Origin: an uncultured Candidatus Saccharibacteria bacterium
GTDB lineage: Bacteria; Patescibacteriota; Minisyncoccia; UBA6257; 2-01-FULL-56-20
Direction: 5' to 3'
Assembly (NCBI GenBank): GCA_965231155.1
Contig: OZ246418.1
Location: 746,194-808,089 of the forward strand
Length of the DNA: 61,896 bases
Notes under the pieces: generated by a model
Database searches by the model: none
The model's input: the letters and a program-made list of their open reading frames with translations, nothing else
Told to the model about the DNA's origin: nothing
Position numbers and translations under genes: made by a program
Shown here: one piece after another, positions 1-61,896 of the stretch
Numbering within the stretch: position 1 is the stretch's first letter
Layout: each line of letters opens with the position of its first letter

Positions 1-146
1 CTCGGGACATTACATCCCGGAGAGTCGTGAACTGAGCAACAATCTCCTTTTTCTTCCTCCTGCTGTCCGTTCGCTCCTCGCGGAACGAAACAAACAACAA
101 AGAACATTGCCACCAGGGCGGTGGCCGCCTTGAGATTAGTTCTCAT
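1..146 (-). CDS. GC-rich cassette ORF, partial (runs off the window edge); signal-peptide-like N-terminus followed by a Cys-rich segment
   Basis: ATG at 146-144 with AAGGAGGTG at 162-154. It translates to MRTNLKAATALVAMFFVVCFVPRGANGQQEEEKGDCCSVHDSPGC... It is too short or partial for the ORF track. Confidence 0.4.
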   Translation of the reverse strand, partial: MRTNLKAATALVAMFFVVCFVPRGANGQQEEEKGDCCSVHDSPGCNVP

Positions 147-217
147 ACCTGCCCACCTCCTTGAGGGCTGTCTTTTGTTTTTTTCTCTCTTATTTAGTTG
201 CAGTGAGAGCTGGGCAC

Positions 218-246
218 ATTCTACACTATATAGAAGTGTATGTCAA
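218..246 (-). promoter_or_regulatory. sigma-70-type promoter for the partial ORF at <1-146
   Basis: TTGACA (246-241), 17-nt spacer, TAGAAT (223-218); about 65 nt upstream of the ATG. Confidence 0.5.
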
Positions 247-260
247 TGCTTCTTCACACT

Positions 261-289
261 AAAAAACCCTGATTTTATAAGGGTTTTTT
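261..289. terminator. bidirectional intrinsic terminator hairpin at the msrB 3' end
   Basis: AAAAAACCCT-gattttata-AGGGTTTTTT, a perfect 10-bp stem with A/T runs on both sides. It overlaps the msrB stop codon. Confidence 0.6.
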
Positions 290-661
290 CTCTTCTTTTT
301 GGAGATCTAAACAGACCGAATTAATGCAGTATCTCTTTCCTCCTTTGTCGGTTGGGCCATCATCAAAAACATGTCCCAAATGGGCCCCACAACTCTTACA
401 CCGCACCTCTGTTCGAGACATCCCATGAGTTGAATCCTCTTTGAGTTCAATGTGCTCTAGGTTCGCTGGCTCCGTAAAACTTGGCCAGCCAGTTCCAGAA
501 TCAAACTTCGTGTCCGAAGAAAATAATTCGACGCCACAAATCGCACATTTAAACATTCCCTCCTCGTGACTATTCCAGTATTTTCCGGTAAATGGCGCTT
601 CTGTTCCACCATATCGAGCCACCTCAATGAGCTCCTTAGAAAGTTCTTTATCTTCTTTCAT
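275..661 (-). CDS. msrB: peptide-methionine (R)-S-oxide reductase MsrB
   Basis: Two CxxC pairs (CAICGVELF, CKSCGAHLGHVFDDGP) and GTGWPSF, all MsrB/SelR signatures. Confidence 0.95.
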   Translation of the reverse strand: MKEDKELSKELIEVARYGGTEAPFTGKYWNSHEEGMFKCAICGVELFSSDTKFDSGTGWPSFTEPANLEHIELKEDSTHGMSRTEVRCKSCGAHLGHVFDDGPTDKGGKRYCINSVCLDLQKEEKKPL

Positions 662-675
662 AATAATTAATGTAT

Positions 676-1218
676 TTATTTTTCTCCCGAATATTTTAAT
701 AACTCATTAAATCTTTCCTTAAGTTTCTCCAGTTTGGGATTAATCACAATCTGACAGTAAGGCGCATCGTTATTGTTTTTGTAATACTTTTGATGATACA
801 TTTCTGCTTCGTAGAACGCACCTAACGGACTAACCTCAGTTACCACTCTCGGACCATTTTCATTTAATTGCTGAATAAACTTTTCAACTTCTTCCTTCTG
901 TTCTTCAGTGGTATAGAAAACTGCTGAACGATATTGCGTTCCGGTATCCGCTCCCTGTCTATTTGGCGTAGTCGGATTATGAGTGGCAAAAAATACAGTT
1001 AATAAATCTGTATAAGTAATCTTTTCTGGATTGTACTCAATACGAATCACCTCTGCGTGTCCTGTATTTCCCATGCAAACTTCTTCGTATGTAGGGTTCT
1101 TTTTCGTGCCACCCGCATATCCTGGCATCACCGAAATAACTCCTTTTAATTCTTCAAATAATGCTTCGGTACACCAGAAACAACCTCCCCCAAAGACTGC
1201 GATTTGATGATTATCCAT
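676..1218 (-). CDS. msrA: peptide-methionine (S)-S-oxide reductase MsrA
   Basis: The GGGCFWC active-site motif plus GHAEVIRIEYNP and YHQKYY. Confidence 0.95.
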   Translation of the reverse strand: MDNHQIAVFGGGCFWCTEALFEELKGVISVMPGYAGGTKKNPTYEEVCMGNTGHAEVIRIEYNPEKITYTDLLTVFFATHNPTTPNRQGADTGTQYRSAVFYTTEEQKEEVEKFIQQLNENGPRVVTEVSPLGAFYEAEMYHQKYYKNNNDAPYCQIVINPKLEKLKERFNELLKYSGEK

Positions 1219-1232
1219 AACAATTATTGTAG

Positions 1233-14730: not shown

Positions 14731-15842
14731 ACAATCACGCCACCGCCCAAAAGTTGCCCTTTAGTATCATAAAAAACCGCCGACTGACCTGGGGCCACAA
14801 ACCGTTGTGCCTCCTTGAAAGTCAGAGCAAACTCTTCTCCTTTCTTATACAATCGGGCAGGAGAAAGCTTCTGGCGATATCGAACCCTGGCGAACACTGC
14901 CAAACCGGTCTTAGGAATCGATACCTTTAGAGAAGTAGTACTGAAATTCCTGAAGAGTAGTTCTTTTTTATAAAGTGCTTCGTGATTCCCCCCTTCGGCG
15001 ACAACAAGAGTGTTTGTTTCTACGCTTTTTGAAACCACATAATGAGCCTTGGTGTCCACCTCACCATGAATCCCCAACTCACGATTCTTACTTTTCAGAT
15101 CTAGGCCATGTCGCTGACCAATCGTATAAAACGTCGCCCCTTCGTGCTCGCCAATCTTTTTTCCCTCAGTTGTAATAATTTCTCCTTTCTTTTCTGGAAT
15201 GTAATCTTTGAGAAACTCAACGATAGAAACCTTGCCTAAAAAGCAAATTCCCTGAGAGTCCTTTTTCTCGGCAGTTGAGAGCTTGGCCTTTTTGGCAATT
15301 ACCCGCACTTCCGATTTCAGGTACTCACCAATCGGAAAGATACAGTGCTTCAGTTGCTTTTGCGTCAGCGTCCACAAAAAATACGACTGATCTTTGTTTT
15401 TGTCTTTGGCTTCAAAAAGTTTGTAAACACTCTGATTCTTTATTTTTGTTTTTTTAACCCTTACGTAATGCCCAGTGGCCACGTAGTCCGCGCCCATCGA
15501 TAACGCCTTCTCTAAAAATAAACCGAACTTAATCTCCCGATTACACATGACATCCGGATTGGGCGTGAGGCCTTTGCGGTAGCCATCGATCATATATTCA
15601 ACGACACGTTTTTTATACTCGTCCTCGAAATCCCAGGTGTAAAAAGGAATTTCCAACTGACCAGCGACCCGACGCGCATCTTCGGCGTCTTCTTCGGCAC
15701 ACCCATCGATATTATAGGAACGCATGAATACGCCCACGAGGTTGTAGCCCTGCTTCTTTAAAAGATAGGCGGTAACGGAAGAATCCACGCCTCCCGACAT
15801 CCCCACGAAGACAGTTTTCTTATTTTTTATAGTTGACCGCAT
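14727..15842 (-). CDS. mnmA: tRNA-specific 2-thiouridylase MnmA
   Basis: PP-loop VGMSGGVDSS, the catalytic Cys context and DSQGICFLG. Confidence 0.95.
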   Translation of the reverse strand: MRSTIKNKKTVFVGMSGGVDSSVTAYLLKKQGYNLVGVFMRSYNIDGCAEEDAEDARRVAGQLEIPFYTWDFEDEYKKRVVEYMIDGYRKGLTPNPDVMCNREIKFGLFLEKALSMGADYVATGHYVRVKKTKIKNQSVYKLFEAKDKNKDQSYFLWTLTQKQLKHCIFPIGEYLKSEVRVIAKKAKLSTAEKKDSQGICFLGKVSIVEFLKDYIPEKKGEIITTEGKKIGEHEGATFYTIGQRHGLDLKSKNRELGIHGEVDTKAHYVVSKSVETNTLVVAEGGNHEALYKKELLFRNFSTTSLKVSIPKTGLAVFARVRYRQKLSPARLYKKGEEFALTFKEAQRFVAPGQSAVFYDTKGQLLGGGVIV

Positions 15843-15894
15843 TGGATGGTTATGGTACTAAATTTATAGCATACTAGGCAATGGGAGGCGGAGA

Positions 15895-16122
15895 ATGTCT
15901 GGAAACCGGAAAATCGACCTACTGGCCGAAGGGATCCAGGAGACTTCTCTCCGCGGGATTCCCCCAGCTATTGCTGGGAAGATTGCGAAAGCTCGAGCTC
16001 AGGCAGCGATTCGTCGTGGTGACGAACTGACCATTGTAACGGTTGGAACGCTTAATCCCACTCGCGATGGGGTTGGCGCACAAGTTCAACGCGTGGTAAG
16101 GAGGAAGACACAGTGCGATTAA
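15895..16122 (+). CDS. GC-rich hypothetical protein (75 aa)
   Basis: GGGAGGCGGAG box before the ATG; GC-rich relative to the flanks; no family recognised. Confidence 0.45.
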   Translation: MSGNRKIDLLAEGIQETSLRGIPPAIAGKIAKARAQAAIRRGDELTIVTVGTLNPTRDGVGAQVQRVVRRKTQCD

Positions 16123-16304
16123 TCGCCAGCGGAAAATGGGATAAGTCTAGTCGTGACTGGAAAATGGTGGTGGCACTACCGCCACCCAGCCCTCCGACTG
16201 ACTATGACCCGATCGAGGGATTCACGGGGTTGAAAGAATTCACCCCAGACGGAAAGGTCTTTCGCCTCGCTGACTACCGAAACAAAATCAAGCCCCTGAC
16301 GTAA
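16113..16304 (+). CDS. GC-rich hypothetical protein (63 aa), translationally coupled to the previous ORF
   Basis: GTG start preceded by AAGGAGG, overlapping the previous ORF by 10 nt. Confidence 0.45.
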   Translation: MRLIASGKWDKSSRDWKMVVALPPPSPPTDYDPIEGFTGLKEFTPDGKVFRLADYRNKIKPLT

Positions 16305-16338
16305 TGTCATGTGGGCTTTTTTTATTTGACTCTTCCTC

Positions 16339-16367
16339 TTGACTTATGTTTTCTGCGGGTGTGTAAT
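16339..16367 (+). promoter_or_regulatory. promoter for 16415-16801
   Basis: TTGACT (16339-16344), 17-nt spacer, TGTAAT (16362-16367). Confidence 0.45.
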
Positions 16368-16414
16368 TTTTCTTAGCCCATCAATCTCGGTGGAGGTGAA
16401 GAGGAGAGGGTCTG

Positions 16415-16801: not shown

Positions 16802-16830
16802 TCTCATCGTTCTTTATTTTCCTTTTACAC

Positions 16831-16858
16831 AATCCCTGCAAATCGCATGGGATTTTTT
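16831..16858 (+). terminator. intrinsic terminator
   Basis: AATCCCTGC-aaatc-GCATGGGATT (1-nt bulge) followed by TTTTTTAT. Confidence 0.6.
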
Positions 16859-16889
16859 ATTCAAGTTGAGTGACGTATAATTGAAGACA

Positions 16890-51999: not shown

Positions 52000-52032
52000 A
52001 AGTCCCTGAATTCTAGCGGATTTTTAATAAAT

Positions 52033-52061
52033 AAAAAAGTCTCGCGATGTTCTGCGAGACT
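52033..52061 (-). terminator. intrinsic terminator of 52117-52533
   Basis: The minus strand reads AGTCTCGC-agaacatc-GCGAGACT followed by TTTTTTATTT. Confidence 0.7.
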
Positions 52062-52116
52062 AGTAGCAAGATTACCACTCTGAATGTACTACCGTCGCCT
52101 TCAGAGAGATGGGAGT

Positions 52117-52533
52117 TTAGGCGGCATCAGCGTCGGCGATGCGAGTCGGCAATGGACGAACGTACGGCGGGGGTATGCGCCCCTCGAGCACATCGATGAC
52201 GAGGTTAAACTCTGGCCCGAATCGGACCTGGGTATCACTACCCGCCTCCGTCCACCACTGACCAAGAACAGAAATGTTGGTCGTTGAACAACCCAACTCT
52301 TTCGCCAGCTTCATAAGAAGCGCTTCGTACTCATCCCTCTCTAAGGGGAAGGTCTGCGGTGCGAGAAACTGACAGACCCCCGGATACTGACGGGAAAGTT
52401 GCGCCCGACGGCTCATGGGCATACTCGCCCAATGAAGTCGCGCGTCAGCGATGCTCATCCCTGGAGGGAAGCCCCCAGCATCCAGGAACTGAGCAAAGCG
52501 CTGGTAGTCCCCGACCGTTTTCAACTTTTTCAT
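52117..52533 (-). CDS. GC-rich hypothetical protein (138 aa)
   Basis: GAAGGAAAG before the ATG, with its own promoter and terminator; no family recognised. Confidence 0.55.
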   Translation of the reverse strand: MKKLKTVGDYQRFAQFLDAGGFPPGMSIADARLHWASMPMSRRAQLSRQYPGVCQFLAPQTFPLERDEYEALLMKLAKELGCSTTNISVLGQWWTEAGSDTQVRFGPEFNLVIDVLEGRIPPPYVRPLPTRIADADAA

Positions 52534-52588
52534 ACCTGACTTTCCTTCTGTCGGGCTCCGAACCGACTAGACATTAGTTGCTGTCAAA

Positions 52589-52617
52589 TATTATGCAAAA
52601 TAATTCTACTTTGTCAA
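52589..52617 (-). promoter_or_regulatory. promoter for 52117-52533
   Basis: TTGACA (52617-52612), 16/17-nt spacer, CATAAT/ATAATA (52595-52589). Confidence 0.5.
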
Positions 52618-52620
52618 TAT

Positions 52621-52648
52621 AAAAAACCAGCCTATAAACTGGTTTTTT
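52621..52648. terminator. bidirectional terminator hairpin; terminates 52672-53025 and abuts the next promoter
   Basis: AAAAAACCAG-cctataaa-CTGGTTTTTT, a perfect 10-bp stem. Confidence 0.7.
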
Positions 52649-52671
52649 ATAAACAATATTCAAAGTAAAAA

Positions 52672-53025
52672 CTAATTACCTGACATCCCCGGAATAGAGT
52701 TCGCAGGCATAATATCAATCCACGCACCAGGAATCTCAAGATGTGGATGCTTCTCAAATGCCTTAGCTGCGATCTCTGGTGATTCAGCTTCGATAATTGA
52801 ATAGAGCATTATGTCGTTTTTCACGCTCGCGACCCCCTCTTTGGTCACTCTCTGAGTTGCACCTGCACCAGAAGTTTCTTTCAAAAGATCCTTGTGTTCA
52901 GTAGCCCACGCCTGCCACTCCTTCTGCATCTTTTCCTCCGCCTCCTTCCGTTCTTCCGCAGGCTTCTGCATCCACTCCGCCATCCCCGCTGCCGGCATCA
53001 TATAGAGAACAATAAATTTTTTCAT
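52672..53025 (-). CDS. hypothetical small protein (about 117 aa)
   Basis: The start is taken at MKKFIVLYMMP; family not recognised with confidence. Confidence 0.55.
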   Translation of the reverse strand: MKKFIVLYMMPAAGMAEWMQKPAEERKEAEEKMQKEWQAWATEHKDLLKETSGAGATQRVTKEGVASVKNDIMLYSIIEAESPEIAAKAFEKHPHLEIPGAWIDIMPANSIPGMSGN

Positions 53026-53066
53026 ACGGTAAAGTATACTCCACTTTCTTACCAAAACTAAATGAA

Positions 53067-53095
53067 TTGACTAAATTGATTATTCCTCGTATAAG
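53067..53095 (+). promoter_or_regulatory. promoter for 53123-53617
   Basis: TTGACT (53067-53072), 17-nt spacer, TATAAG (53090-53095). Confidence 0.55.
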
Positions 53096-53122
53096 TGAAT
53101 CAGTTTCAAGAAAGGAGGGGCA

Positions 53123-53617
53123 ATGGAATTCGGAAACGAGTTTCTAGCCCAATTCGTCGGCGGACAATTCGCCACGTCGGGGAGAAACAACACACTGGAA
53201 CTGTGGGGAGAGATCTCCACAATCACATACGATGGCAGGAGTCTTCGAGTCGAATTCACCTGGTTGGCACGACACGACCCAGTCAGGAAGATTTGGCGCG
53301 AAGAAGATCCCGTTCCATTCACGACACCACTGCAAATCGTCGGACAAGCACCGAACATGATCGGTAGGCCAGTTGTCTTGCATGGAGATGACCATTCCTT
53401 CTGTCTCCTGTCCCCGGACTGTCCGGAGCTCCTCGAAAAGCGAGAAGTTCTTCCCAGAAAGAGCGAAGATCTCGGAGCTCTCGCCAGAGAGCTCGAAACT
53501 CTTCCTCTCGAGGAACTGGATAGACGCGCGAACGATGCCCTATTCCACGAAGGACAGGAGTTGGTTGACGTCTATATCTCAGAATATCGGCGGAGAAACA
53601 TCCCTCTGCCCGCCTGA
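53123..53617 (+). CDS. GC-rich hypothetical protein (164 aa)
   Basis: AAAGGAGGGG lies 4 nt before the ATG and a terminator lies downstream; no family recognised. Confidence 0.55.
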   Translation: MEFGNEFLAQFVGGQFATSGRNNTLELWGEISTITYDGRSLRVEFTWLARHDPVRKIWREEDPVPFTTPLQIVGQAPNMIGRPVVLHGDDHSFCLLSPDCPELLEKREVLPRKSEDLGALARELETLPLEELDRRANDALFHEGQELVDVYISEYRRRNIPLPA

Positions 53618-53622
53618 ATCCC

Positions 53623-53650
53623 AGCGAATGATAAACTCATTCGCTTTTTT
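53623..53650 (+). terminator. intrinsic terminator of 53123-53617
   Basis: AGCGAATG-ataaact-CATTCGCT followed by TTTTTTATTT. Confidence 0.7.
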
Positions 53651-54242
53651 ATTTCCGTCGACGAGATTCGAGCCACTCCGGCACAGGACCAAACAAAATT
53701 GGACAGGTTGATATCTCGGTTCTCGTCACATCGAATATTTTTAAATAAAGACCGTCAGTACTATCAAAAATTGCTTCGCTCCATTCAAGTCCCAATCGAG
53801 ATGATATCTCTTGTACTGCCGTCTCATCTTTCCCTTCGACTTCGATAATCGAATCCAGCCAGGGCCAGGTGTCGAGCATAAGTTCGACGCCATCAAGTTT
53901 CCACAATTCGCGCTTTGTCTCCTGCTCTGATTTCACAATAAGTCCAATAGCCAGCATCAAGGCTTTGGTTTTCTCGTAGTCACTAACTACAACTTCAATT
54001 TCCACCATGCCGTCTATGGTCTCCGCATTTCGCTGCTTAAAAGTAAGTGTAATTTTATCGCCCTCGTCTCGCAACCGCACCCAGGCCGCTTTCTTATCAA
54101 GCCGAAGATCTTCGTAATCAAAAATAGTTCGGCGGATTGATCGCTCGGGATAAACCAACTCCCCTCCTAAACTCTTGAGTTTCTCCCGCAAAACATCGTG
54201 ATTTACACCAACAAATGTAGCTTCAATCTCTTTTTGCATCAT
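53649..54242 (-). CDS. CYTH-domain protein (class IV adenylate cyclase / triphosphatase family)
   Basis: An N-terminal EIEATF (ExExK-like) strand, and the RLRDEGDKITLTFK...E.E... pattern of the triphosphate tunnel fold. The start is taken at MMQKEIEA. Confidence 0.7.
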   Translation of the reverse strand: MMQKEIEATFVGVNHDVLREKLKSLGGELVYPERSIRRTIFDYEDLRLDKKAAWVRLRDEGDKITLTFKQRNAETIDGMVEIEVVVSDYEKTKALMLAIGLIVKSEQETKRELWKLDGVELMLDTWPWLDSIIEVEGKDETAVQEISSRLGLEWSEAIFDSTDGLYLKIFDVTRTEISTCPILFGPVPEWLESRRRK

Positions 54243-54291
54243 AGAAGCATACTCGGAGTTCCAAAATAAAAAAAGATCTCCAATTGGAGAT

Positions 54292-54573
54292 CTAGTTGAT
54301 AACTTCACACACGTTGCGTTCGAAAAGAAGTCCCGGCGCCTGACTTCCTCCGGGAGTCGCTCGCATATGCCGAAAAAAGTTTGCGTAATCCGGATCCTTC
54401 GGAGTCATCTGGGCAACCACCTGCTCATAACTCACCCAGTAGTACTTATCCGAAATCTGCTCCATCGGTTCATCGGGGTCAGGCTCGACTGTATCGAGCT
54501 CCATCCCAATGAATAACTTCCGCTGAGCCTCCGGATCGCCCGCCCGCGGCAGACCAGTAATTCTGACTTTCAT
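54292..54573 (-). CDS. GC-rich hypothetical protein (93 aa)
   Basis: Starts 3 nt after the stop of 54576-54764, so the two form a pair; no family recognised. Confidence 0.5.
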   Translation of the reverse strand: MKVRITGLPRAGDPEAQRKLFIGMELDTVEPDPDEPMEQISDKYYWVSYEQVVAQMTPKDPDYANFFRHMRATPGGSQAPGLLFERNVCEVIN

Positions 54574-54575
54574 GA

Positions 54576-54764
54576 CTAGTCCTTGAAAGCCGAGAACTTG
54601 AGATCTGTCGGCAGCTCACCGAACTCTGCCTCAAGCGCTCTGATCTTGACCCACATAGCATCCTCGCCACCAGGACCGGAGCAGTTCCAGCGTGGATCCT
54701 TCTCGCTCGAAAGATTCCAGCTGGTACTCCCAGTGTTCGCGTAGAAGTCAGAAATTGCACCCAT
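54576..54764 (-). CDS. GC-rich hypothetical protein (62 aa)
   Basis: TAAGGAGG (54778-54771) lies 6 nt before the ATG. Confidence 0.45.
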   Translation of the reverse strand: MGAISDFYANTGSTSWNLSSEKDPRWNCSGPGGEDAMWVKIRALEAEFGELPTDLKFSAFKD

Positions 54765-54787
54765 CGCAGACCTCCTTAGCTGTCAAG

Positions 54788-54816
54788 AAACTACCACTCC
54801 AATATCAAAGTGTCAA
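54788..54816 (-). promoter_or_regulatory. promoter for the 54764/54573 gene pair
   Basis: TTGACA (54816-54811), 17-nt spacer, TAGTTT (54793-54788). Confidence 0.45.
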
Positions 54817-54859
54817 AAAGGAAATAAAAAAAGCCCGTTGAGATTATCGCGGGGCAATA

Positions 54860-55222
54860 CTACTGACGGTACAAAGTAAATCCCTTCGCAAACCCAAACT
54901 CACGACGAACACGAAAACTTCCAGAGGCGAATAGATCTTCGATCGCTTTCTGGTCCTCGGCACTGATTGGGCAGGAGTACTTTCCCGCAGAGGAAAACCC
55001 CCAAACCCCAGTTCCGCTCTCCGACTCACCCATCAAGACTCCACCGTGAACGAAAGTGATGGACCCTTCCTCGAACTTAACGTCACCTTTCCCAAGATTG
55101 ATGGCGGTTGGAAAGGAAACGCAAAACGCCTCCGCCTCATGTTGTCCACATCCAGTCAGACTGAAACCAGTCACAGTTTCTCCGTCCCGCTGGACTTTGA
55201 ATTCAATACGTCGAGTGTCCAT
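54860..55222 (-). CDS. GC-rich hypothetical protein (120 aa)
   Basis: CAGGAGGG before the ATG; no family recognised. Confidence 0.5.
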   Translation of the reverse strand: MDTRRIEFKVQRDGETVTGFSLTGCGQHEAEAFCVSFPTAINLGKGDVKFEEGSITFVHGGVLMGESESGTGVWGFSSAGKYSCPISAEDQKAIEDLFASGSFRVRREFGFAKGFTLYRQ

Positions 55223-55247
55223 TGATCACCCTCCTGTTCTGCCGCTG

Positions 55248-55276
55248 AAACTATCACCTCTCTCCTAGCGTGTCAA
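55248..55276 (-). promoter_or_regulatory. promoter for 54860-55222
   Basis: TTGACA (55276-55271), 17-nt spacer, TAGTTT (55253-55248). This is the same -10 as the neighbouring cassette. Confidence 0.45.
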
Positions 55277-55374
55277 AATAAAAACCCCGGCGAGATCGTC
55301 GCTGGGATTTTCAATTACAAAATAATTAATCGGTGGATCATCTTTATTCTAAAACATATTAGATTAAACAATGT

Positions 55375-55746
55375 CTAAAAACTTCTCCTAATTTGATTAA
55401 ACTTCCAAAAAACAAGAGCACCTATTGTAGATAATGCAATCCCAGAAACAATGCTTTCAAGAGGTATACTGATTCCCAATATAAATGGTTGGAAGGTGCC
55501 TATTATCCCAAAAATCCAAAGAGCAAAAATCATCTTATCGCTAAGAAACTTCGCTGTTTTCAACTGTTGTTTCTTTTTTGAAGGAAGCCCTTCCAAAAAA
55601 GGAGAGAGGAAATAAAAACTAATCAAAAATAAGGAAATTACAACCACAGTCCCCAACCAACTTCTTGCAAAATCAGGAAAGAACAAAGCATTCACAAGAA
55701 TGAGAAGGAGGGGCGCAAAATACGGAATAGCGTATTTTGATTTCAT
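55375..55746 (-). CDS. hypothetical 4-TM membrane protein (AT-rich)
   Basis: Hydrophobic profile only. Confidence 0.55.
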   Translation of the reverse strand: MKSKYAIPYFAPLLLILVNALFFPDFARSWLGTVVVISLFLISFYFLSPFLEGLPSKKKQQLKTAKFLSDKMIFALWIFGIIGTFQPFILGISIPLESIVSGIALSTIGALVFWKFNQIRRSF

Positions 55747-55794
55747 TTTTCCATTATATCAAATAACAGAAACCCTGCCCAAGGGTATCAAAAT

Positions 55795-55821
55795 AAAAAA
55801 GCCACTAGTTTTTCTAGTGGC
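55795..55821 (-). terminator. intrinsic terminator of the histidine-phosphatase gene
   Basis: The minus strand reads GCCACTAG-aaaaa-CTAGTGGC followed by TTTTTTATTTT. Confidence 0.7.
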
Positions 55822-56366
55822 TATAGATCAAGCTCGTGAATTGAAGCATTGGGGATATGAATCATCCTCTCCAACCCTCCGTAGAAATAATAAAGACACC
55901 TCATCGCTCCGCCATGCGAAACTACAAGGGGTTTCTTGAAGGGCTGCGTCTTCGCATAAGCAATGAAACTGTCGAGGCGAGCCCGAACATCTCCTATCGA
56001 TTCCCCTCCATAGGGCCGGTAGTCATATTCCTGCTCCCCATCAGCGATCCTTAGGTCGAAAGACGCGCCACTCAGGATCTGCATCTCCTCCCAGCTCCTG
56101 CCGGCCAGAAACCCGAAATCTCGTTCCTGGAGTCCGTCGTGAAATTCGATCGGAATACCCAGTGCTGGGCTAAGAATTTCTCCGGTTTCCCGTGCACGAG
56201 CTAGCGGTGAGGAAAAGATGATGTCAAAACCTTTCCCCCGAAGCTGAGGAATCAACGCTCTCGCCTGATCCCTACCCCGATCGTTCAAAGACTTATCGAC
56301 CCTTCCCGCCAGCCTGCGGTCCAAATTATCCTCAGTCTCTCCGTGACGGACGATCGTGAATTTCAT
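55821..56366 (-). CDS. histidine phosphatase family protein (phosphoglycerate-mutase-like)
   Basis: The RHGETEDN catalytic motif at the N-terminus and a downstream SHGG motif. Confidence 0.85.
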   Translation of the reverse strand: MKFTIVRHGETEDNLDRRLAGRVDKSLNDRGRDQARALIPQLRGKGFDIIFSSPLARARETGEILSPALGIPIEFHDGLQERDFGFLAGRSWEEMQILSGASFDLRIADGEQEYDYRPYGGESIGDVRARLDSFIAYAKTQPFKKPLVVSHGGAMRCLYYFYGGLERMIHIPNASIHELDL

Positions 56367-56486
56367 ATTTTCCTCTCTTGCTGGCTACAGCTTCCATTAT
56401 AAATTGAGAGATGTCAAAACTCCCAGGCGATAGACCGCTCCTCCTGAGTTCTTCTTTATAGTAGTAAGTATCTTTGTAGCTCGAGC

Positions 56487-56960
56487 TTAAAAGAACTTGA
56501 AGGAGGAAATGATCTGATTCGTCACCTCCATATCCTCTGTCGGACGGACATAGATTCTAAGAGTGCTGCTTCCACGCTGTATGAAATAAGCATTCTGATT
56601 CTGAATAGCACTCAATCCTGCAAATGTGGCTTCCGTACCAGTAATTGGAGAATCTGCGGTGACAATGGCTTCATCAATATCAATAATTGATCCACTCTCT
56701 GATATCCCACTTGAAGCATAGTAAACACTTAGGTTCTTGCTCTGAGAAGTTGCGGATACAAAACCATTAGGATCATACCCTCCTACCTTCGCATCTTTCG
56801 GAGACTGAAACTCAAAACCATACGTGTCGTTTCGGTAAGTCTGCCAATCAGATTGAGTAACTGGGGACTGACCCAATGGCATCGCTGGACGAGAAGTGTA
56901 ATACCAAACACCAGCTCCTAAAATTAATAAAACTACCAGGATAATAAGTATTTTTTTCAT
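56487..56960 (-). CDS. hypothetical signal-anchored secreted protein (paralog-like to 12719-13432)
   Basis: MKKILIILVVLLILGAG is a TM segment, and WQTYRNDTYGFEFQSPKD matches WKLYRNKEYGFELSYPKD in the other protein. Confidence 0.6.
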   Translation of the reverse strand: MKKILIILVVLLILGAGVWYYTSRPAMPLGQSPVTQSDWQTYRNDTYGFEFQSPKDAKVGGYDPNGFVSATSQSKNLSVYYASSGISESGSIIDIDEAIVTADSPITGTEATFAGLSAIQNQNAYFIQRGSSTLRIYVRPTEDMEVTNQIISSFKFF

Positions 56961-57052
56961 ACTAGTAAGTATACCAAACCAACCGAACCACATACGCCTC
57001 TCTCGGTCAAACCGGAAAATAAAAAAGCCGCGTAGATACCTAGCGACTTTGA

Positions 57053-57211
57053 TTAGCAGGAATAGTGCTCGGCCATGTAGCGAGCAACTCCTTCGCCGGA
57101 GTTGCCGTTAGCCAAACAGGCTTCCCGATAGATGTCTCATTGATCGCGCTTGCCCGATTCGGCCCAATACTTGATCTGTTCGTGAAGACTCCGAGGAACA
57201 CTAAGCTTCAC
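57053..57211 (-). pseudogene. ribbon-helix-helix-like small ORF interrupted by an in-frame TGA (57139-57137)
   Basis: GTG-KLSVPRSLHEQIKYWAESGKRDQ-TGA-DIYREACLANGNSGEGVARYMAEHYSC-TAA. The beta-strand plus two-helix pattern resembles CopG/Arc-type proteins. A terminator-like hairpin with a T-run follows. Confidence 0.3.
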
Positions 57212-57258
57212 GTTTTTTCCGTTGCAATCAGGAAAACTGACAACGATTGGAGTTTCAT

Positions 57259-57273
57259 GGAAGGACGAAGGGT
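57259..57273. repeat. direct repeat GGAAGGACGAAGGGT (copy 1)
   Basis: An exact 15-nt match to 57944-57958. Confidence 0.8.
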
Positions 57274-57295
57274 ATGATGAAAATCGATTCAATAT

Positions 57296-57332
57296 AAAAA
57301 GAAAAGGCCTTGCGATTGTTTCGCAAAGCCTT
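57296..57332 (-). terminator. intrinsic terminator of 57335-57856
   Basis: The minus strand reads AAGGCTTTGCGA-aacaa-TCGCAAGGCCTT (one mismatch) followed by TTCTTTTT. Confidence 0.65.
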
Positions 57333-57334
57333 GA

Positions 57335-57856
57335 TTACTTCTTCTGTCCGGCGATCTCTTCGTTGATCTCGTCGACCACCTCCTGGACAATCCCGGCGAA
57401 ATCCGCCGGAAAAATCGCTCGGGCGATCTCGGAAATGTACTTCTGGATGATGAGGTACACAAACGGCGACTGACCGACCAATGGATGATTGATGGGCTTG
57501 CCGGTGAAACCATTCACGCCATTCTCGAGGTCGTAAAGAGCAAGTGTCGCCCCCATGATGAACCCGTGCGGAACGAGTTCACCGTTTACGTAGTCAGCGA
57601 GGAATTCCCCGAATTTGTAGATGACCTCAGTCTGACCAGGTAGGTGCTCGCGAAGGTTTCGGAGACAATCCCGGATCACACCGTCAGGCGCCGCAACTGT
57701 GGCCGTGGCCGTCTTCAGAGCTTTCCGTGGATTCTTCTCGTCAAGGAATGGCATGGAGGGTTGGCGTCCGCGCTTCCCCTTTTCATGAGCGTGATCCACC
57801 ACCTTCTCGGCGTAGGTCGTCGGAAAAACCGGCAACGAATCGAGATTTCTCTTCAT
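57335..57856 (-). CDS. GC-rich hypothetical protein (173 aa)
   Basis: AGAGAGGA before the ATG, with its own promoter and terminator; no family recognised. Confidence 0.55.
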   Translation of the reverse strand: MKRNLDSLPVFPTTYAEKVVDHAHEKGKRGRQPSMPFLDEKNPRKALKTATATVAAPDGVIRDCLRNLREHLPGQTEVIYKFGEFLADYVNGELVPHGFIMGATLALYDLENGVNGFTGKPINHPLVGQSPFVYLIIQKYISEIARAIFPADFAGIVQEVVDEINEEIAGQKK

Positions 57857-57911
57857 CGAGCTGTCCTCTCTTTTTGGGTTTGCGAATTGAATCGCTTCAA
57901 ACGCTAATTTT

Positions 57912-57940
57912 TTTATAAAGCATTATTATAATATTGTCAA
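57912..57940 (-). promoter_or_regulatory. promoter for 57335-57856
   Basis: TTGACA (57940-57935), 17-nt spacer, TATAAA (57917-57912). Confidence 0.5.
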
Positions 57941-57943
57941 ACC

Positions 57944-57958
57944 GGAAGGACGAAGGGT
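57944..57958. repeat. direct repeat GGAAGGACGAAGGGT (copy 2), part of a 23-nt junction sequence at 57936-57958
   Basis: An exact 15-nt match to 57259-57273. The adjacent GTCAAACCGGAA (57936-57947) recurs at 57006-57017. Confidence 0.8.
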
Positions 57959-58027
57959 GCGGCAAAAATCCTTTATCATAAAGCTTTAACATACCGAACC
58001 AGCAAAAACTCACCCCCCGAATGTCTA

Positions 58028-58918
58028 CTAATTTATTAGTACGGGATCTTCGCCAATCAGTAGTAATTTAGATTTGAATTCTCTTTTTAACTCATTGATT
58101 TCTCGATTGATGTTTGGCCTAAAGTATTCAGTCATTTTTTGTGCAGTTTCTACAGAGAAAGGTTTTGAGAAGCTGAATGTTTTTTTCCACTTCCTAATTC
58201 CCATATCTATTCTTGTCCGGATCGCAACTTTTGCCTGAACAAGTATTCTGAGGTAAACAGGAATATTATTGCCAAAAACTTGAAGATCTAAAAAATTTTC
58301 AAACTCTAAAAGATTATCTCTCAAGGTTTGATTATGAACGTTTGGTGTATTTAACTTCATAAGGCCGATCTGAGTATTGAGTGTCAAAGTTCTATCAAAT
58401 TGTCTACTAATATCTTCTAAGAGAATAGGCATCTCTTGAGAAATACTAATCACTTGCAACATGAGGTTTTCTAAGTATGCGCTTCCGGTGGTTTGTTTAA
58501 ATAAGTCCTTATCGAAAGTAAAAGTCCATGATAGGGGTACAAAAACTTGACCTACAGAGATTTGTCCTAAAGCATTCTCTTTTTCTACTCTTTCCTTAAG
58601 TCGTTTTAAATTATTATCTTTGAATGTGTGGAGCATGGTGTCTATTTCTATTAAATTATTAATTGCTGTGACCAAATTCTTCTCTAATAAAAGCAAGTAC
58701 TCTTCTTGATCATTCTTTTTTCTATACCAGGTTGTTATAAAAAATACGGCCAAAGGAGTGGCTGCTCCAATTAATGCTCCGATTAATTCTTGCCATTCGT
58801 AAACAATATCTTTGATCTCATTAGGGTTGATCAGGCCACAACAAATCAAAAGGATAAGTATGCACCCCGTTATTGATAGAGTAATTATTCCTGTAGTCCA
58901 TGTCGGCAGCTTCTTCAT
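58028..58918 (-). CDS. AT-rich hypothetical protein: 2 N-terminal TM segments plus a ~220-aa helical cytoplasmic domain
   Basis: Hydrophobic N-terminus. Sample line 58981-59040 in the adjacent gene has 19/60 G+C, lower than the backbone. No family recognised. Confidence 0.6.
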   Translation of the reverse strand: MKKLPTWTTGIITLSITGCILILLICCGLINPNEIKDIVYEWQELIGALIGAATPLAVFFITTWYRKKNDQEEYLLLLEKNLVTAINNLIEIDTMLHTFKDNNLKRLKERVEKENALGQISVGQVFVPLSWTFTFDKDLFKQTTGSAYLENLMLQVISISQEMPILLEDISRQFDRTLTLNTQIGLMKLNTPNVHNQTLRDNLLEFENFLDLQVFGNNIPVYLRILVQAKVAIRTRIDMGIRKWKKTFSFSKPFSVETAQKMTEYFRPNINREINELKREFKSKLLLIGEDPVLIN

Positions 58919-58922
58919 AGAA

Positions 58923-59603
58923 CTAACGAGGTTTTTGAAGTCTAATTTTGTAGTAAGAAAATAAAAGAAAAATAAAGTACAAAGTTAAATAAATTACCCC
59001 CCAACTTTCAAGATTTTGGAATAAGTTCCAAAATCTTCCCACATAGATGGGAAGGATGCTGGCCAAGGCTGCTAAAGGTACTCCCGAAATTGCCGCGTAG
59101 ATGAAGGGGGAGATTTTTTCTTTTAGAGTATCTATTTTATTGGATATAAAAATGAAAGAAAAAATTAAAACAAGAGGATAATGATCTTGCACAAATGTAT
59201 TTAACGGCTTTTCATACAGTGCAATAAAATAATTCCAAAGGTTTATTGAAAACCAAATATCAACTGCAACTAGTCCCCATGCGAGTCCGCTACCAAACCA
59301 CATTTCCTTAACACTTTTATTAATAAAAGAAAGAAAAGTACTGGTTAAAATAAAAGTGACCAGTATCATGAGTGAAAACCAAAAAAGCTTGAGATTCACG
59401 AGGGCACTATTAGCATCGGAATTTTCTGCTGACGGGATACCTAGAAAGAATGATCCTACGACAAAAATAAAACCGGTTATCTCTAATATGGGTTTTTTCT
59501 CACGCCAAAATTTTTCGAGCATATCAGACATATGCCCATAGCATACGCCTTTCATGAAGGTTCGCAAGCCAGAAAGATTGCTCGAGAAAATGATCAGGTA
59601 CAA
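58923..59603 (-). CDS. AT-rich hypothetical polytopic membrane protein
   Basis: About 6 TM segments. The start is uncertain, and the gene lies 4 nt upstream of the next gene. Confidence 0.55.
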   Translation of the reverse strand: MYLIIFSSNLSGLRTFMKGVCYGHMSDMLEKFWREKKPILEITGFIFVVGSFFLGIPSAENSDANSALVNLKLFWFSLMILVTFILTSTFLSFINKSVKEMWFGSGLAWGLVAVDIWFSINLWNYFIALYEKPLNTFVQDHYPLVLIFSFIFISNKIDTLKEKISPFIYAAISGVPLAALASILPIYVGRFWNLFQNLESWGVIYLTLYFIFLLFSYYKIRLQKPR

Positions 59604-59697
59604 GGCTTATCCGAGCACCGGAAAGAGCCGTACAAACGTACGGCGATTGAGGAGAAAAGGATATAACGTAGCAGATGATTATTTAATCGAGCAAGAT

Positions 59698-60156
59698 TTA
59701 CTCGATCTTGGAGATGGTATAGGTAATATCCCCCTTCGGCGTCATCACCTTCGCCTCCTCGCCCACACGGCGTCCTAAAAAGGCCTTGCCCATTGGTGAC
59801 TCATTCGAGATCATACCTTCGGCTGGATTGGACTCGCTGGAACCAACCAAATGATAGGTGAAACTCTTGCCATTTGTTTTGACCGTAAAGGTGCAGCCCA
59901 CAGAGACGGTTTCGCCTCCGGTGGTCTTCTTGATAATAGAAGCATTCTTGATGACATCCTCAAGCTCCATGATCCGTTTTTCAACGGCGGCCTGCTCATC
60001 CTTAGCTTCGCTATACTCGGAGTTCTCAGAGAGATCGCCAAACTCCTTAGCCCGCTTTAGGCGCTCAGCCACTCGGCGTCGGCCTTCGTGGATTAAATCA
60101 TTCAATTCATCCTTCAACTCCTCGAGACGCTCCTTGCTTACATAAAATTTATCCAT
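59698..60156 (-). CDS. greA: transcription elongation factor GreA
   Basis: N-terminal coiled coil with AKEFGDLSENSEYSEAKDEQ and a C-terminal FKBP-like domain. Confidence 0.95.
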   Translation of the reverse strand: MDKFYVSKERLEELKDELNDLIHEGRRRVAERLKRAKEFGDLSENSEYSEAKDEQAAVEKRIMELEDVIKNASIIKKTTGGETVSVGCTFTVKTNGKSFTYHLVGSSESNPAEGMISNESPMGKAFLGRRVGEEAKVMTPKGDITYTISKIE

Positions 60157-60280
60157 AGGTGGATTAAAAAAATAAAAAGTGAGAAAGTGGATTAGTAAGG
60201 GGCTAACACGGAATGCCTTAATTTTAAGGGCAGAAACCCCAAAAGTAAAACAAAGTTATAAAGACCGTTTTAGTGAGAAA

Positions 60281-60586
60281 TTAGAGCGAAACACCCAACT
60301 TCTTCCTAATACGACTGCCGGACATATCCCGGACAAAGTAAAGTTTCGAACGATGTGGTTTCTTTGGGCTAGAGATAATCTCCACCTTGGTAATCATTGG
60401 GGTGTTGATTGGATAGACCTTCTCTACGCCAACGGCGGCTACCATGGCGCGGACGGTAAAGGTACCACCAACCTCATTGCCATGCTTTCGGGCAATCACC
60501 AGACCCTCAAAACGCCCACCTTCTTTCTCGTGGACACGAATCCTGGCTCCGGCTTTGATTTGTTCTAATACTTTTGCGTCAATCAT
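60281..60586 (-). CDS. rplS: 50S ribosomal protein L19
   Basis: The pattern GARIRVHEKEGGRFEGLVIARKHGNEVGGTFTVR....GVEKVYPINTP. Confidence 0.9.
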   Translation of the reverse strand: MIDAKVLEQIKAGARIRVHEKEGGRFEGLVIARKHGNEVGGTFTVRAMVAAVGVEKVYPINTPMITKVEIISSPKKPHRSKLYFVRDMSGSRIRKKLGVSL

Positions 60587-60618
60587 GTTTTTTTATATAA
60601 ATAGGTGATTTCAGGGCC

Positions 60619-61002
60619 TTAGGAGGCCTTGGCCATCAATTGTTTCACTAATTTGATGACTTCGTCAAGTGAGGCATGAACTTTTACGAAATATCCCGCC
60701 GCTCCCAGACTCTTGGCTTTTTCAACATCGCTATCCTGACTGAGGTTGGACATGATGATTACCGGTATCCGATTATACTGCGGATCTGAGGCCAGAGTCT
60801 GTAAAAGCTCTAGTCCGGAGATGCGAGGCATAATCAGATCGAGAATCACTACTTGAGGCCGCATCGTTTCCAACATATGAAGCGCCTCCTCGCCATCAAA
60901 CGCCTGTTTGACAGTCAGGCCCTCTTTCTCTAGCCGACTTCGCAGAAGAGGCGAGAGAAAACGGTCGTCTTCAATAATGAATACGTTGACAGTTTCAATC
61001 AT
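60619..61002 (-). CDS. single-domain response regulator (receiver only)
   Basis: VFIIEDD...VILDLIMPRISG...MSNL...K; no output domain. Confidence 0.85.
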   Translation of the reverse strand: MIETVNVFIIEDDRFLSPLLRSRLEKEGLTVKQAFDGEEALHMLETMRPQVVILDLIMPRISGLELLQTLASDPQYNRIPVIIMSNLSQDSDVEKAKSLGAAGYFVKVHASLDEVIKLVKQLMAKAS

Positions 61003-61235
61003 GAGTTCTCGTTAGGTAATACATACAACACACCACACGAGGTGGTGTTCCACTCTTAATCAGTATATCGGGAAACAACAAAAAAACAAAATGAATTATT
61101 CTTTTGTGACTTCCATGAATTAAAAGAGCTTTTTAGTTATCCCAATCGCCTTCCATCTTTCTTGAAAAGATTAAAGAAGGGCTTGCTCAACTCGAAAGTT
61201 GAGATCGCCTAACAAAAAATAAATTTTTTGTATAG

Positions 61236-61896
61236 TTTAATTGTTCCACGCACAGCTTCCGCTACGCGTGCCTTGTTACGACTTAGTCCTCATTACTAAG
61301 CTTAGGCTAGCTCCACCGAAATGGGTCTTCACCTACTCCCAGCTCTGCTGACTTGACGGGCAGTGAGTACAGGACTCGAGAACGTATTCACCGCGGCGTG
61401 GCTGATCCGCGATTACTAGCAATTCCGGCTTCATGGGGGCGAGTTGCAGCCCCCAATCCGTACTGGGGTCGGGTTTAAGGGATTAGCTCCACCTTGCGGT
61501 TTGGCAACCCGTTGTCCCGACCATTGTAACACGAGTGTCGCCCAGGGTATCAAGGGCCACGCTGATTTGACGTCATCCTCTCCTTCCTCCCCCGTTAGAA
61601 ACCGCGAACCATTGCTGGCTCTCGAACTCTAACGGGGGCAGTTTCCAGTGACACTTGTAACACCGGATAAGGGTTGCGCTCGTTACCCCAATTAAGGGAA
61701 CATCTCAAGACACGAGCTGACGACAACCGTGCAACACCTGTCCTAGTAGTCCTTGCGGAGGGCCAACGTTTCTGCCGGCTTACTACTAAGATTTCTAACC
61801 CTGGTAAGGTTCCTCGCTTAACGTCGAATTAAACCTCATGTTCCACTGCTTGTGCGAGTCCCCGTCTATTCCTTTGAGTTTTAAGCTTGCGCTCGT
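61236..61896 (-). rRNA. 16S rRNA, 3' portion (partial; continues beyond the window)
   Basis: The reverse complement contains AAGTCGTAACAAGG, ...CUGCCCGUCA..., GGAUGACGUCAA and ACGAGCGCAACCC-type blocks. Helix 45 is CACGCGTAGC-GGAA-GCTGTGCGTG (61256-61247 is the 3' arm). The 3' boundary is approximate. Confidence 0.9.

Follow-up and report, generated by a model that had tools for sequence, protein, structure and literature searches.

When genes of a single genome differ from their neighbours both in base composition and in expression signals, are they foreign DNA, or can one genome maintain two gene classes side by side? This question is raised by the stretch of DNA analysed here (hereafter the window; 61,896 bp, 46% GC overall), in which GC-rich genes preceded by Shine-Dalgarno (SD) boxes are interleaved with a backbone of housekeeping genes including those for aminoacyl-tRNA synthetases, DnaG, sigma-70, SMC, RNase III, NusB, EF-P, S16, L19 and GreA. 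Four tRNA genes and a bacterial 16S rRNA gene, represented by its 3' part, are also present in the window. All relatives of its DnaG are from metagenome-assembled genomes (MAGs) of Patescibacteria labelled Parcubacteria, Paceibacteria or 'Liptonbacteria', and contigs identical to the window were assembled from several (at least four) sequencing runs, including the groundwater runs SRR14271366/72/73. An earlier note on this DNA had listed 14 GC-rich genes, each in its own promoter-to-terminator cassette, and had offered two explanations, i.e. acquisition from high-GC donors or a lineage-specific gene class. In this analysis, the start codons of all genes were inferred from open reading frames (ORFs), transcript ends and the lengths of 5' untranslated regions (UTRs) were predicted from sequence signals, and the window was compared with loci and contigs of related Patescibacteria, which are designated by L-numbers (L004, L005, L131, L136 etc.).

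The three hand counts of G+C in the earlier note (43/60, 37/60 and 25/60) were all exact on recount. The mean G+C content at third codon positions (GC3) was 0.61 in the 14 listed genes vs 0.44 in the 61 others (Mann-Whitney p=2e-7), with per-gene values of 0.40-0.50 in almost every backbone gene. Moreover, a tetranucleotide nearest-centroid test placed 71 of 75 genes in the correct class; thus, the GC3 and k-mer statistics by which the earlier note had proposed to challenge the split do separate the classes. GC3 was highest in 39246-39998 (0.79), 40225-41295 (0.78), 19167-20768 (0.68) and 57335-57856 (0.67), followed by 0.65, 0.64, 0.61 and 0.60 and then by 0.47-0.57 in the remaining listed genes. 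The cassette proteins contain less Lys (0.61x), Asn (0.72x) and Ile (0.77x), and more Arg, Pro, Ala and Gly. Some of the earlier wording needs adjustment: the backbone, at 44-45% GC, is AT-rich only relative to the cassettes, and three of the genes described as visibly GC-rich (<1-146, 15895-16122 and 54860-55222) have a GC3 of at most 0.51 and are distinguished mainly through the G+C content at first and second codon positions (GC1 and GC2) and through their expression signals. In addition, the list, which describes a real class, was incomplete because 33848-34342 and 55821-56366 also belong to it; this gives a cassette class of 16 genes beside a backbone class of about 59 genes. High expression as the cause of the GC-rich class was ruled out because the genes for S16 and EF-P are backbone-like, their GC3 not being raised and an SD box being absent; the L19 gene (60281-60586) has neither a TTGAC-type -35 nor a cassette terminator.

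SD strength was scored as the duplex energy of the upstream region to the canonical anti-SD, with a cut-off of <= -6 kcal/mol. By this score, 13 of the 14 listed genes had an SD box vs 6 of the 61 others (Fisher p=3e-9). The cassette boxes are of the AAGGAGG type and lie 4-9 nt 5' of the start codon; the 30 nt 5' of backbone starts are essentially free of SD. A TTGAC[ACT] -35 was present within 170 nt upstream of 13/17 cassette genes vs 5/59 backbone genes (p=1e-7), and two cassette promoters match TTGACA-N16/17-TATAAT at 12/12 positions. Similarly, a hairpin with a T5-8-A-T3-4 tail lies 3' of 11/16 cassette genes vs 3/59 backbone genes. The promoter, the AGGAGG-type box with its spacing and the terminator that the earlier note had described were therefore all recovered. 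The predicted cassette 5' UTRs span 15-135 nt. By contrast, in 20/59 backbone genes and in no cassette gene, the TAnAAT box of the highest-scoring sigma-70 promoter lies 5-13 nt 5' of the ATG and is combined with a weak -35, and operon-internal backbone genes have A/T-rich DNA upstream. Given this position of the backbone -10, the weak -35 and the rarity of backbone terminators, the claim that the regulatory DNA of the two classes is identical in style does not hold. These signals point to leaderless or nearly leaderless mRNAs for the backbone genes. In total, we conclude that the two gene classes are distinct in composition and regulation, and that their signals separate them more sharply than the earlier note had stated.

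The cassettes are stacked head to tail, with the terminator tail abutting the next -35 or with the hairpin containing it, and repeats between units consist of terminator tails and -35 boxes only. Most units contain a single gene, supporting the notion of standardised single-gene expression units; two pairs (15895-16122/16113-16304 and 54576-54764/54292-54573) look bicistronic, and for these the statement that each gene sits in its own cassette has to be given up.

As claimed in the earlier note, the SD box is unable to pair with the 16S rRNA of this organism: the tail, GGAACAAUUAAACU, has no anti-SD and lacks CCUCC, there is no CCUCC in the 100 nt past it, and duplex energies of upstream regions with the organism's own tail gave no signal. 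The anti-SD motif is known to have been lost in about half of Parcubacteria (Tsurumaki et al. 2022, PMC9297842). In agreement with this, SD-led ORFs made up 0-30% in related loci vs 55-70% in Chloroflexota control loci in the same search. Together, the 16S rRNA without an anti-SD and the SD-poor loci imply that the backbone grammar fits the ribosome and that the cassette grammar does not. A downstream CCCUUCUUU, ~65 nt past the 16S end, is unlikely to be a displaced anti-SD, being located in a hairpin, and the GGAGGT boxes fit the classical tail better. Among 80 related SD-poor loci, GC3 relative to the locus median was +0.036 for SD-led ORFs vs -0.005 for others (p=3e-6), and the SD-led ORFs were also shorter than other ORFs. 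We conclude that SD and GC3 are associated across the lineage as a trend, with exceptional strength in the window's genus.

The window contains 51 copies of RAAGGAG vs 28.6 +/- 5.6 expected from dinucleotide shuffles without codon control, with 38/51 copies on the main coding strand (-). Genes thus do not avoid SD-like heptamers, in keeping with what might be expected of an anti-SD-less ribosome. Inside the 16S rRNA gene, an extra stem-like segment (cccgttagag...ctaacggggg) at 61590-61650 (-), which falls within the part aligned to the 3' major domain, is possibly an expansion specific to the lineage.

Syntenic orthologues were found for the cassette 4 protein, here called CobW530, and for the beta-CASP-X-Y genes of cassettes 6-8 (Table 1). 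CobW530 is a COG0523-type GTPase (PF02492, E=1e-11) with a His-rich tract, in which the CobW_C domain is absent and a family-specific C-terminal extension of ~250 aa stands in its place; its G3E GTPase domain, the His-rich tract, and a Fur-box together with FUR/NAS neighbours are those of a COG0523/CobW metallochaperone. About 20 full-length relatives were found, only in Patescibacteria-type contexts. The orthologues in L131 (77% identity), L132 (37%) and L134 (36%) always lie beside NAS and FUR genes, exceed their neighbours in GC3 by 0.10-0.24 in every case, and have an AAGGAG-like box upstream; the neighbours look leaderless, with -10 boxes at the ATG. A perfect Fur/Zur-box-like palindrome, AACGCGAAnnnTTCGCGTT, is located at 20809-20827 inside the CobW530 promoter spacer, and a second copy at 21668-21686 between the divergent NAS and FUR genes; it occurs nowhere else in the window (0.07 expected). 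Through this palindrome, the GC-rich, SD-led CobW530 gene and its AT-rich leaderless neighbour have one operator in common, and CobW530 is thus wired into native regulation.

The nicotianamine-synthase-like (NAS) gene itself (20835-21656) is 87% identical at fourfold degenerate sites to its counterpart in L131 (1033-1854), and the values for its neighbours EF-P, CobW530 and FUR, 35-44%, are at saturation. Either this one gene was exchanged recently, or it may be under unusual constraint.

The second conserved group consists of a beta-CASP/RMMBL nuclease, the ORFan protein X and protein Y, which has a cold-shock domain (CSD). Beta-CASP has four full-length relatives, all in Patescibacteria-type contexts. 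In L136, L137 and L138, an X homologue and then a third ORF come after the beta-CASP gene, in the beta-CASP-X-Y order and with SD boxes present. The GC3 of X in six genomes was 0.78, 0.65, 0.80, 0.72, 0.71 and 0.68 over background values of 0.25-0.52; in L136, a 40% GC genome, X has a GC3 of 0.72 and the flanking beta-CASP and Y genes have 0.29 and 0.25. The 3' arm of the beta-CASP terminator hairpin (41450-41475) holds the -35 TTGACA of the X promoter, paired to an upstream TGTCAA, and this overlap is kept in three distant genomes, i.e. the window, L136 (9476-9506) and L138 (~2650-2690). Moreover, the X 5' UTR contains an upstream SD-like box, AAAAGGAGG (the GAAAGGAGG element; 41383-41375), ~45 nt into the UTR and with no start codon after it; the GAAAGGAGG element is present in the X leaders of four genomes (window, L136 at 9569-9577, L005 and L004). 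Between it and the X ATG, the window has an in-frame stop, and as read from the sequence this box would be unable to position a ribosome on an adjacent start. The X proteins are only 22-29% identical, and the promoter, the hairpin with the next TTGACA and the upstream GAAAGGAGG element are still conserved. Among 5.8 billion proteins, X matched only itself; among 1.84 billion representatives, a single weak partial match proved to be the X of a sibling contig, located in the corresponding slot beside dnaG. In a tblastn search of phages, X had no match and Y matched through its CSD domain alone. AlphaFold2 single-sequence models were of low confidence (pLDDT 42 for X, 38 for Y). Beta-CASP, X and the CSD-protein Y look like an RNA-related module. 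Altogether, the syntenic orthologues of CobW530 and beta-CASP-X-Y, which the earlier note had named as a finding that would speak against accessory genes, imply that these genes are not simply strain-level accessory genes; they are also far from being a phylum-wide core.

In L136, CCACCTCCTTTC, the classical 16S anti-SD tail sequence, lies directly past the X stop codon (11096-11107) and precedes the next gene's SD by ~140 nt; it has no counterpart in the window.

At fourfold sites of conserved residues, the window and L131 or L005 were only 33-44% identical, both in backbone and in cassette genes, which means that synonymous sites have reached saturation. Despite saturation, the G+C content at fourfold sites (GC4) was 0.65/0.53 for CobW530, 0.80/0.73 for Y and 0.91/0.71 for X. 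Either selection holds the composition in place, or a pool of similar composition has repeatedly re-supplied the genes. Because a decaying foreign composition would have ameliorated, we read the trait as maintained.

The stability of mRNAs was compared with that of synonymous third-position shuffles keeping protein, codon usage and dinucleotide counts. In the window, the mRNAs of Y (z=-4.3), X (-3.9), 16415-16801 (-3.2) and 53123-53617 (-2.5) were more stable than their shuffles, and the excess recurred in orthologues (L136_X, z=-6.1; L137_X, -4.6; L005_Y, -3.9). The mean z of the cassette class was -1.24 vs -0.11 for the backbone (44 genes), a significant but modest difference (p=0.011); for EF-P, z was +3.0. 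Long inverted repeats do not account for the excess stability, since none was found. In total, these data suggest RNA-level selection in part of the class. Overlapping antisense genes were rejected as the cause of the high GC3, because antisense frames are as long as synonymous shuffles predict, except in L004_X. In this X homologue (L004 1518-2558), the antisense is open over 340/346 codons vs 196 expected, a length reached by 0/300 synonymous shuffles.

Most of the cassettes are located in variable, accessory regions at the ABC|dnaG and greA|lysS junctions (islands 1 and 2, Table 1), in line with the earlier note's view of their genes as accessory. The ABC ATPase gene adjoins dnaG in at least eight related genomes (L006, L009, L011, L013, L017, L021, L024 and L026), and greA adjoins lysS in nine related metagenome contigs. 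In the comparison with sibling genomes that the earlier note had proposed, cassette content differed at these conserved junctions: L004, L005, L084 and L087 have other SD-led, GC3-rich ORFs at the same slots, and the flanking proteins of the close siblings are 73-94% identical to those of the window. Cassette 9 is missing from L084 at the equivalent position, and in L005 a different SD-led ORF of 80 aa occupies the slot of cassette 5. The perfect direct repeat flanking cassette 14 is 15 nt long vs a longest repeat of 14 nt among 400 random flank pairs, and cassette 14 is the only one of 14 units with flanking direct repeats. Next to it, 57016-57260 looks like a decayed cassette, with short broken ORFs, a GAAGGAG box with a 7-codon ORF (ATG at ~57075) after it, and an orphan terminator that is still intact and ends in T6ATTTT. 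The differing island content, the 15-nt repeat and the decayed unit together imply that part of the class turns over like accessory DNA. No integrase or transposase domain, attC-like repeat or phage gene was found near the cassettes; in PHROGs searches only the CSD domain matched, and the cassette neighbours are housekeeping genes.

Altogether, we give an even chance to the reading that the cassettes constitute a heritable, maintained second expression regime beside a leaderless default, also present in related Patescibacteria; of the two options in the earlier note, the lineage-specific gene class fits best. In the default regime (~59 genes), -10-dominated promoters 5-13 nt from the ATG would give leaderless mRNAs, organised in operons and translated without SD pairing. 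In the second regime (~16 genes), insulated one- or two-gene units would combine a consensus TTGACA, a 5' UTR of 15-135 nt, AAGGAGG, a GC-rich coding sequence and a T6AT4 terminator; the mRNAs would be made from strong consensus promoters, leadered, GC-rich, often highly structured and closed by intrinsic terminators. Their translation would be off the default route and would rely on the 5' UTR and the GGAGG box, by a mechanism that works without the missing anti-SD; ribosomes might load or stand by at this purine-rich box, or a trans-acting factor might bind it. We infer that the GGAGG box works without anti-SD pairing and that selection maintains the trait. The likeliest maintaining agent would be RNA-level selection for structured, stable, separately controlled leadered transcripts. 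The genes are lineage-restricted and probably conditional, and the known members may serve under zinc limitation, in RNA processing or in cold-shock-type RNA binding, with CobW530 as a Fur/Zur-box-controlled zinc-chaperone-like GTPase. The more specific proposal that anti-SD-less ribosomes, or a trans-acting factor, read AAGGAGG, giving a second, pairing-independent translation regime for a conserved class of GC-rich, structured, insulated mRNAs in Paceibacteria, we regard as rather unlikely; the SD-like box without a start codon in the X 5' UTR, which points to recognition other than by a start-positioning duplex, speaks for it.

Several observations weigh against a maintained regime. The argument for maintenance is based on three gene families, and in one of them, CobW530, the trait drifts, GC3 being 0.68 vs 0.54 between close relatives. 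SD and GC can also separate, as in L136, where beta-CASP and Y have SD boxes without being GC-rich. L004_X, L005_X and several small cassettes have no excess structure, and it is a minority of genes that carries the folding signal. Retention of SD boxes without an anti-SD is proven for the window genome and would extend to near relatives by inference, the anti-SD status having been read in the window genome only, with no sibling 16S gene within the loci retrieved. Finally, the variation of island content between close siblings at the same two junctions and the perfect 15-nt direct repeat around cassette 14 favour a mobile, moron-like cassette pool, which may fit the small ORFans at least as well as, or better than, a maintained regime does.

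Such a pool would consist of portable promoter-gene-terminator units circulating within Patescibacteria or within unsampled phages or plasmids and inserting at permissive sites between core operons, and GC content and SD boxes would mirror the source pool, maybe lineages or elements that use an anti-SD, and not selection in the present host. We consider this main rival possible, if doubtful. The units are self-contained, the ORFans have no homologues, a decayed remnant with an orphan terminator is present (~57016-57260), and most detectable horizontal gene transfer (HGT) into Patescibacteria is from other Patescibacteria (PMC12455944). However, mobility genes, attC-like repeats and phage genes are absent near the cassettes, and 1/14 units has flanking repeats. 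Moreover, CobW530 and beta-CASP-X-Y have kept their neighbours over deep divergence, CobW530 shares the operator of the leaderless NAS gene, GC richness in L136 is confined to the module's middle gene, and GC-rich relatives of the same clade are SD-poor too, hence there is no obvious source pool.

A recent transfer from bacteria outside the phylum that have a high GC content and use SD, with the composition not yet ameliorated and the SD box an inert fossil, would explain the GC1>GC2<GC3 profiles and the amino-acid shift, which are typical of proteins from ~60% GC genomes, as well as the location in variable islands and the canonical SD boxes including GGAGGT, which complements the classical ACCUCC tail. 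It is nevertheless improbable: X has no homologue in 5.8 billion proteins and its lone weak match is in a sibling Patescibacteria contig, full-length relatives of CobW530 and beta-CASP occur in Patescibacteria-type contexts only, the trait recurs in orthologues past synonymous saturation, and the common terminator tail of the cassettes and the terminator/-35 overlap are conserved between distant Patescibacteria. For X, Y, CobW530 and beta-CASP, import from outside is thus largely refuted by now, and with these relatives, the ORFans without homologues and the recurrence past saturation, the high-GC donors invoked in the earlier note are not supported. Genes intended for the bacterial host of a presumed episymbiont, carrying universal bacterial signals for expression there in the manner of T-DNA, would be insulated, would be readable by an anti-SD-bearing bacterium and not by pairing with the organism's own 16S rRNA, and could well encode mostly ORFans, as observed. 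We find this very hard to credit given that CobW530 lies in a native metal-homeostasis cluster under the Fur-box operator of a leaderless neighbour, that X, Y and beta-CASP resemble an intracellular RNA-handling module, that neither transfer machinery nor border repeats accompany the cassettes, and that nothing at all indicates that these bacteria deliver nucleic acids. The least credible explanation is an artefact, i.e. a chimeric assembly of two organisms or spurious ORFs in GC-rich non-coding DNA. Long chance ORFs do arise in GC-rich DNA and 16113-16304 was not called by a public gene caller; against this, the same arrangement was assembled independently from at least four sequencing runs and is also present in MAGs of unrelated studies, the orthologues of X, Y, CobW530 and beta-CASP are homologous at the protein level, and cassettes and backbone genes are interleaved one by one.

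Phage morons, reportedly described by Juhala and Hendrix in 2000 in the lambdoid phages HK97 and HK022, are said to be autonomous promoter-gene-terminator insertions. The cassettes resemble them in having their own sigma-70 promoter, an intrinsic terminator and mostly one ORF (two units being bicistronic), in being inserted, in islands 1 and 2, between genes that are adjacent in relatives, and in a base composition that differs from the flanks. Unlike morons, they are located in a bacterial chromosome without phage genes nearby, several families are syntenic across distant genomes with a compositional offset that outlasts synonymous saturation, and they also differ from the host in the mode of translation initiation. 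With genomic islands and integron arrays, the cassettes share variable content at fixed junctions, head-to-tail single-gene units and atypical composition, and like a horizontally acquired island they are absent from close relatives. However, there are neither mobility genes nor tRNA-linked att sites, direct repeats are present at cassette 14 only, and no homologues of matching composition point to a donor lineage, the relatives being of Patescibacteria type only. Integron cassettes are promoterless, whereas the units described here have their own promoters, and integrase and attC/attI are missing.

In Bacteroidota, the anti-SD is present but sequestered, and SD boxes survive on a handful of genes, rpsU among them. 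The window genome is similar in that SD is rare genome-wide and retained on a specific minority of genes; it differs in that the anti-SD sequence is gone and that the SD-led genes are accessory or conditional and compositionally distinct. Mixed leaderless and SD-led genomes, such as those of Mycobacterium and Deinococcus, form 'group C' of GeneMarkS-2 (PMC6028130). The window agrees with this type in having -10 boxes right at many starts and SD on the leadered rest, and departs from it in that those genomes keep a canonical anti-SD and are not known to show a GC split, whereas the window's 16S tail cannot pair. The anti-SD-less Parcubacteria (PMC9297842) share the 16S tail without CCUCC; in the sections of that report available to us, SD helices are taken as simply not forming and a retained SD-led, GC-rich class is not mentioned. 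Nor did a search of the literature, to the extent that its text was accessible, give a description of such a class.

A maintained class would offer a natural experiment on the function of the SD box where SD:anti-SD pairing is impossible, and one of the rare instances of base composition, transcript architecture and initiation mode covarying gene by gene within one genome. In practice, gene finders trained on one grammar will mis-start or miss genes of the other class in Patescibacteria, and composition-based HGT detectors would flag conserved native genes (CobW530, X) as foreign. The finding also delimits a small set of probably conditional genes for zinc starvation and RNA handling, together with ORFans and the beta-CASP-X-Y module.

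Table 1. Cassettes, islands and the 16S rRNA gene in the window (CDS, coding sequence; promoters, UTRs and terminators as predicted)
Feature	Position	Strand	CDS and product	Promoter and 5' UTR	SD box	Terminator	Remarks
Cassette 1	1..246	-	<1-146; N-terminus signal-peptide-like	TTGACA-17-TAGAAT 246-218	AAGGAGG 162-156		Truncated at window edge
Cassette 2	15833..16327	+	15895-16122, overlapped by 16113-16304	-35 TTGACC at 15833	GGGAGG-N6-ATG (15895-16122); AAGGAGG-N8-GTG (16113-16304)	Hairpin, T8ATTT tail from 16317	
Cassette 3	16339..16861	+	16415-16801	-35 TTGACT at 16339		Hairpin ~16833-16852, tail TTTTTTATT 16853-16861	mRNA structure z=-3.2
Cassette 4	19144..20832	-	19167-20768, GC3 0.68; CobW530	TTGCAA-17-TAGTAT 20832-20804	AAAGGAG	19168-19151 + T7	
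Cassette 5	33824..34420	-	33848-34342; longest ORF extends to 34396		AGGAGG-N5-ATG	Hairpin + TTTTTATTTT tail at 33833	Between sigma-70 and AlaRS
Cassette 6	39151..40123	-	39246-39998, GC3 0.79; protein Y, cold-shock domain at N-terminus + unknown C-terminal domain	TTGACA-16-TATAAT (12/12) 40123-40096; 5' UTR ~90 nt	GAAGGAG	Tail at 39159	
Cassette 7	40158..41458	-	40225-41295, GC3 0.78; protein X, 356-aa ORFan	TTGACA-17-TATAAT (12/12) 41458-41430; 5' UTR ~130 nt	Second SD (GAAGGAG) 6 nt before ATG	Tail from 40167	
Cassette 8	41440..42976	-	41476-42894, GC3 0.55; beta-CASP/RMMBL nuclease		GGAGGT-N5-ATG		
Cassette 9	52028..52617	-	52117-52533, GC3 0.64; ORFan	TTGACA-16-CATAAT 52617-52590	AGAAGGAA	52061-52038 + T6ATTT	
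Cassette 10	53067..53655	+	53123-53617; ORFan	-35 TTGACT at 53067	AAAGGAGG-N4-ATG	53623-53645 + T6ATTT	mRNA structure z=-2.5
Cassette 11	54262..54816	-	54576-54764, then 54292-54573 2 nt past first stop codon	-35 TTGACA at 54816	TAAGGAGG	54293-54274 + T8ATTTT	Bicistronic
Cassette 12	54822..55276	-	54860-55222	-35 TTGACA at 55276, directly joined to preceding terminator's T-tail	CAGGAGG-N7-ATG	Tail at 54832	
Cassette 13	55789..56417	-	55821-56366, GC3 0.56; histidine phosphatase (His_Phos_1)	-35 TTGACA at 56417	GAGAGGA	55822-55800 + T6ATTTT	
Cassette 14	57259..57970	-	57335-57856, GC3 0.67; ORFan	-35 TTGACA at 57940; -10 TATAAA	GAGAGGA	57332-57304	Flanked by perfect 15-nt direct repeat GGAAGGACGAAGGGT, 57259-57273 and 57944-57958
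Island 1	37604..43806		317-aa ORF, LigT-like gene, Y, X, beta-CASP, IMPase-like gene				6.2 kb, between dnaG (35835-37559) and ABC ATPase gene (43904-44632)
Island 2	52000..59697		Cassettes 9-14, few backbone-style genes, 34% GC pair 58028-59603				7.7 kb, between lysS (50437-51999) and greA (59698-60156)
16S rRNA gene, 3' part	61234..61896	-					Tail GGAACAAUUAAACU aligned (Rfam) to consensus GGAUCACCUCCUUU

Among the genes listed in the earlier note, Pfam, NCBIfam, PHROGs and PADLOC recognised no protein family apart from CobW, beta-CASP and CSD, as that note had anticipated. The ORFans had no match in phage, defence-system or curated families (PHROGs, PADLOC, NCBIfam and phage tblastn), the cassette 5 protein (33848-34342) had no family match, and the SD-led proteins of the window had no homologues among the SD-led ORFs of 120 related loci. 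The gene status of 16113-16304, which the public gene caller did not call, is uncertain.

Some genes outside the cassettes deviate in composition. The KhpA-like KH-domain gene 23351-23626 is the sole backbone gene with a tetranucleotide profile nearer to the cassette class; its mRNA has excess structure (z=-2.7), yet it is without a clear SD box. In L134, a relative with 38% GC, purD (18338-19666) has a GC3 of 0.52 vs a background of ~0.28 and AAAGGAG upstream, and is thus an enzyme of known function showing cassette-type traits. Two adjacent ORFs in 58028-59603 (296 aa and ~210-226 aa) have 34-35% GC, far below the backbone, and neither a Pfam match nor an SD box; they make up a third composition class and may be a low-GC import.

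Finally, 56487-56993 was first scored as SD-led and is probably a leaderless low-GC gene starting at 56957. The segments 53005-53039 and 56940-56974 are 74% identical over 35 nt (TATACT -10, 7 nt, ATG AAA AAA), and the genes 52672-53022 and 56487-56957 are small and have hydrophobic N-termini. Based on this similarity, the two genes are probably leaderless paralogues that are shorter than the longest-ORF calls.

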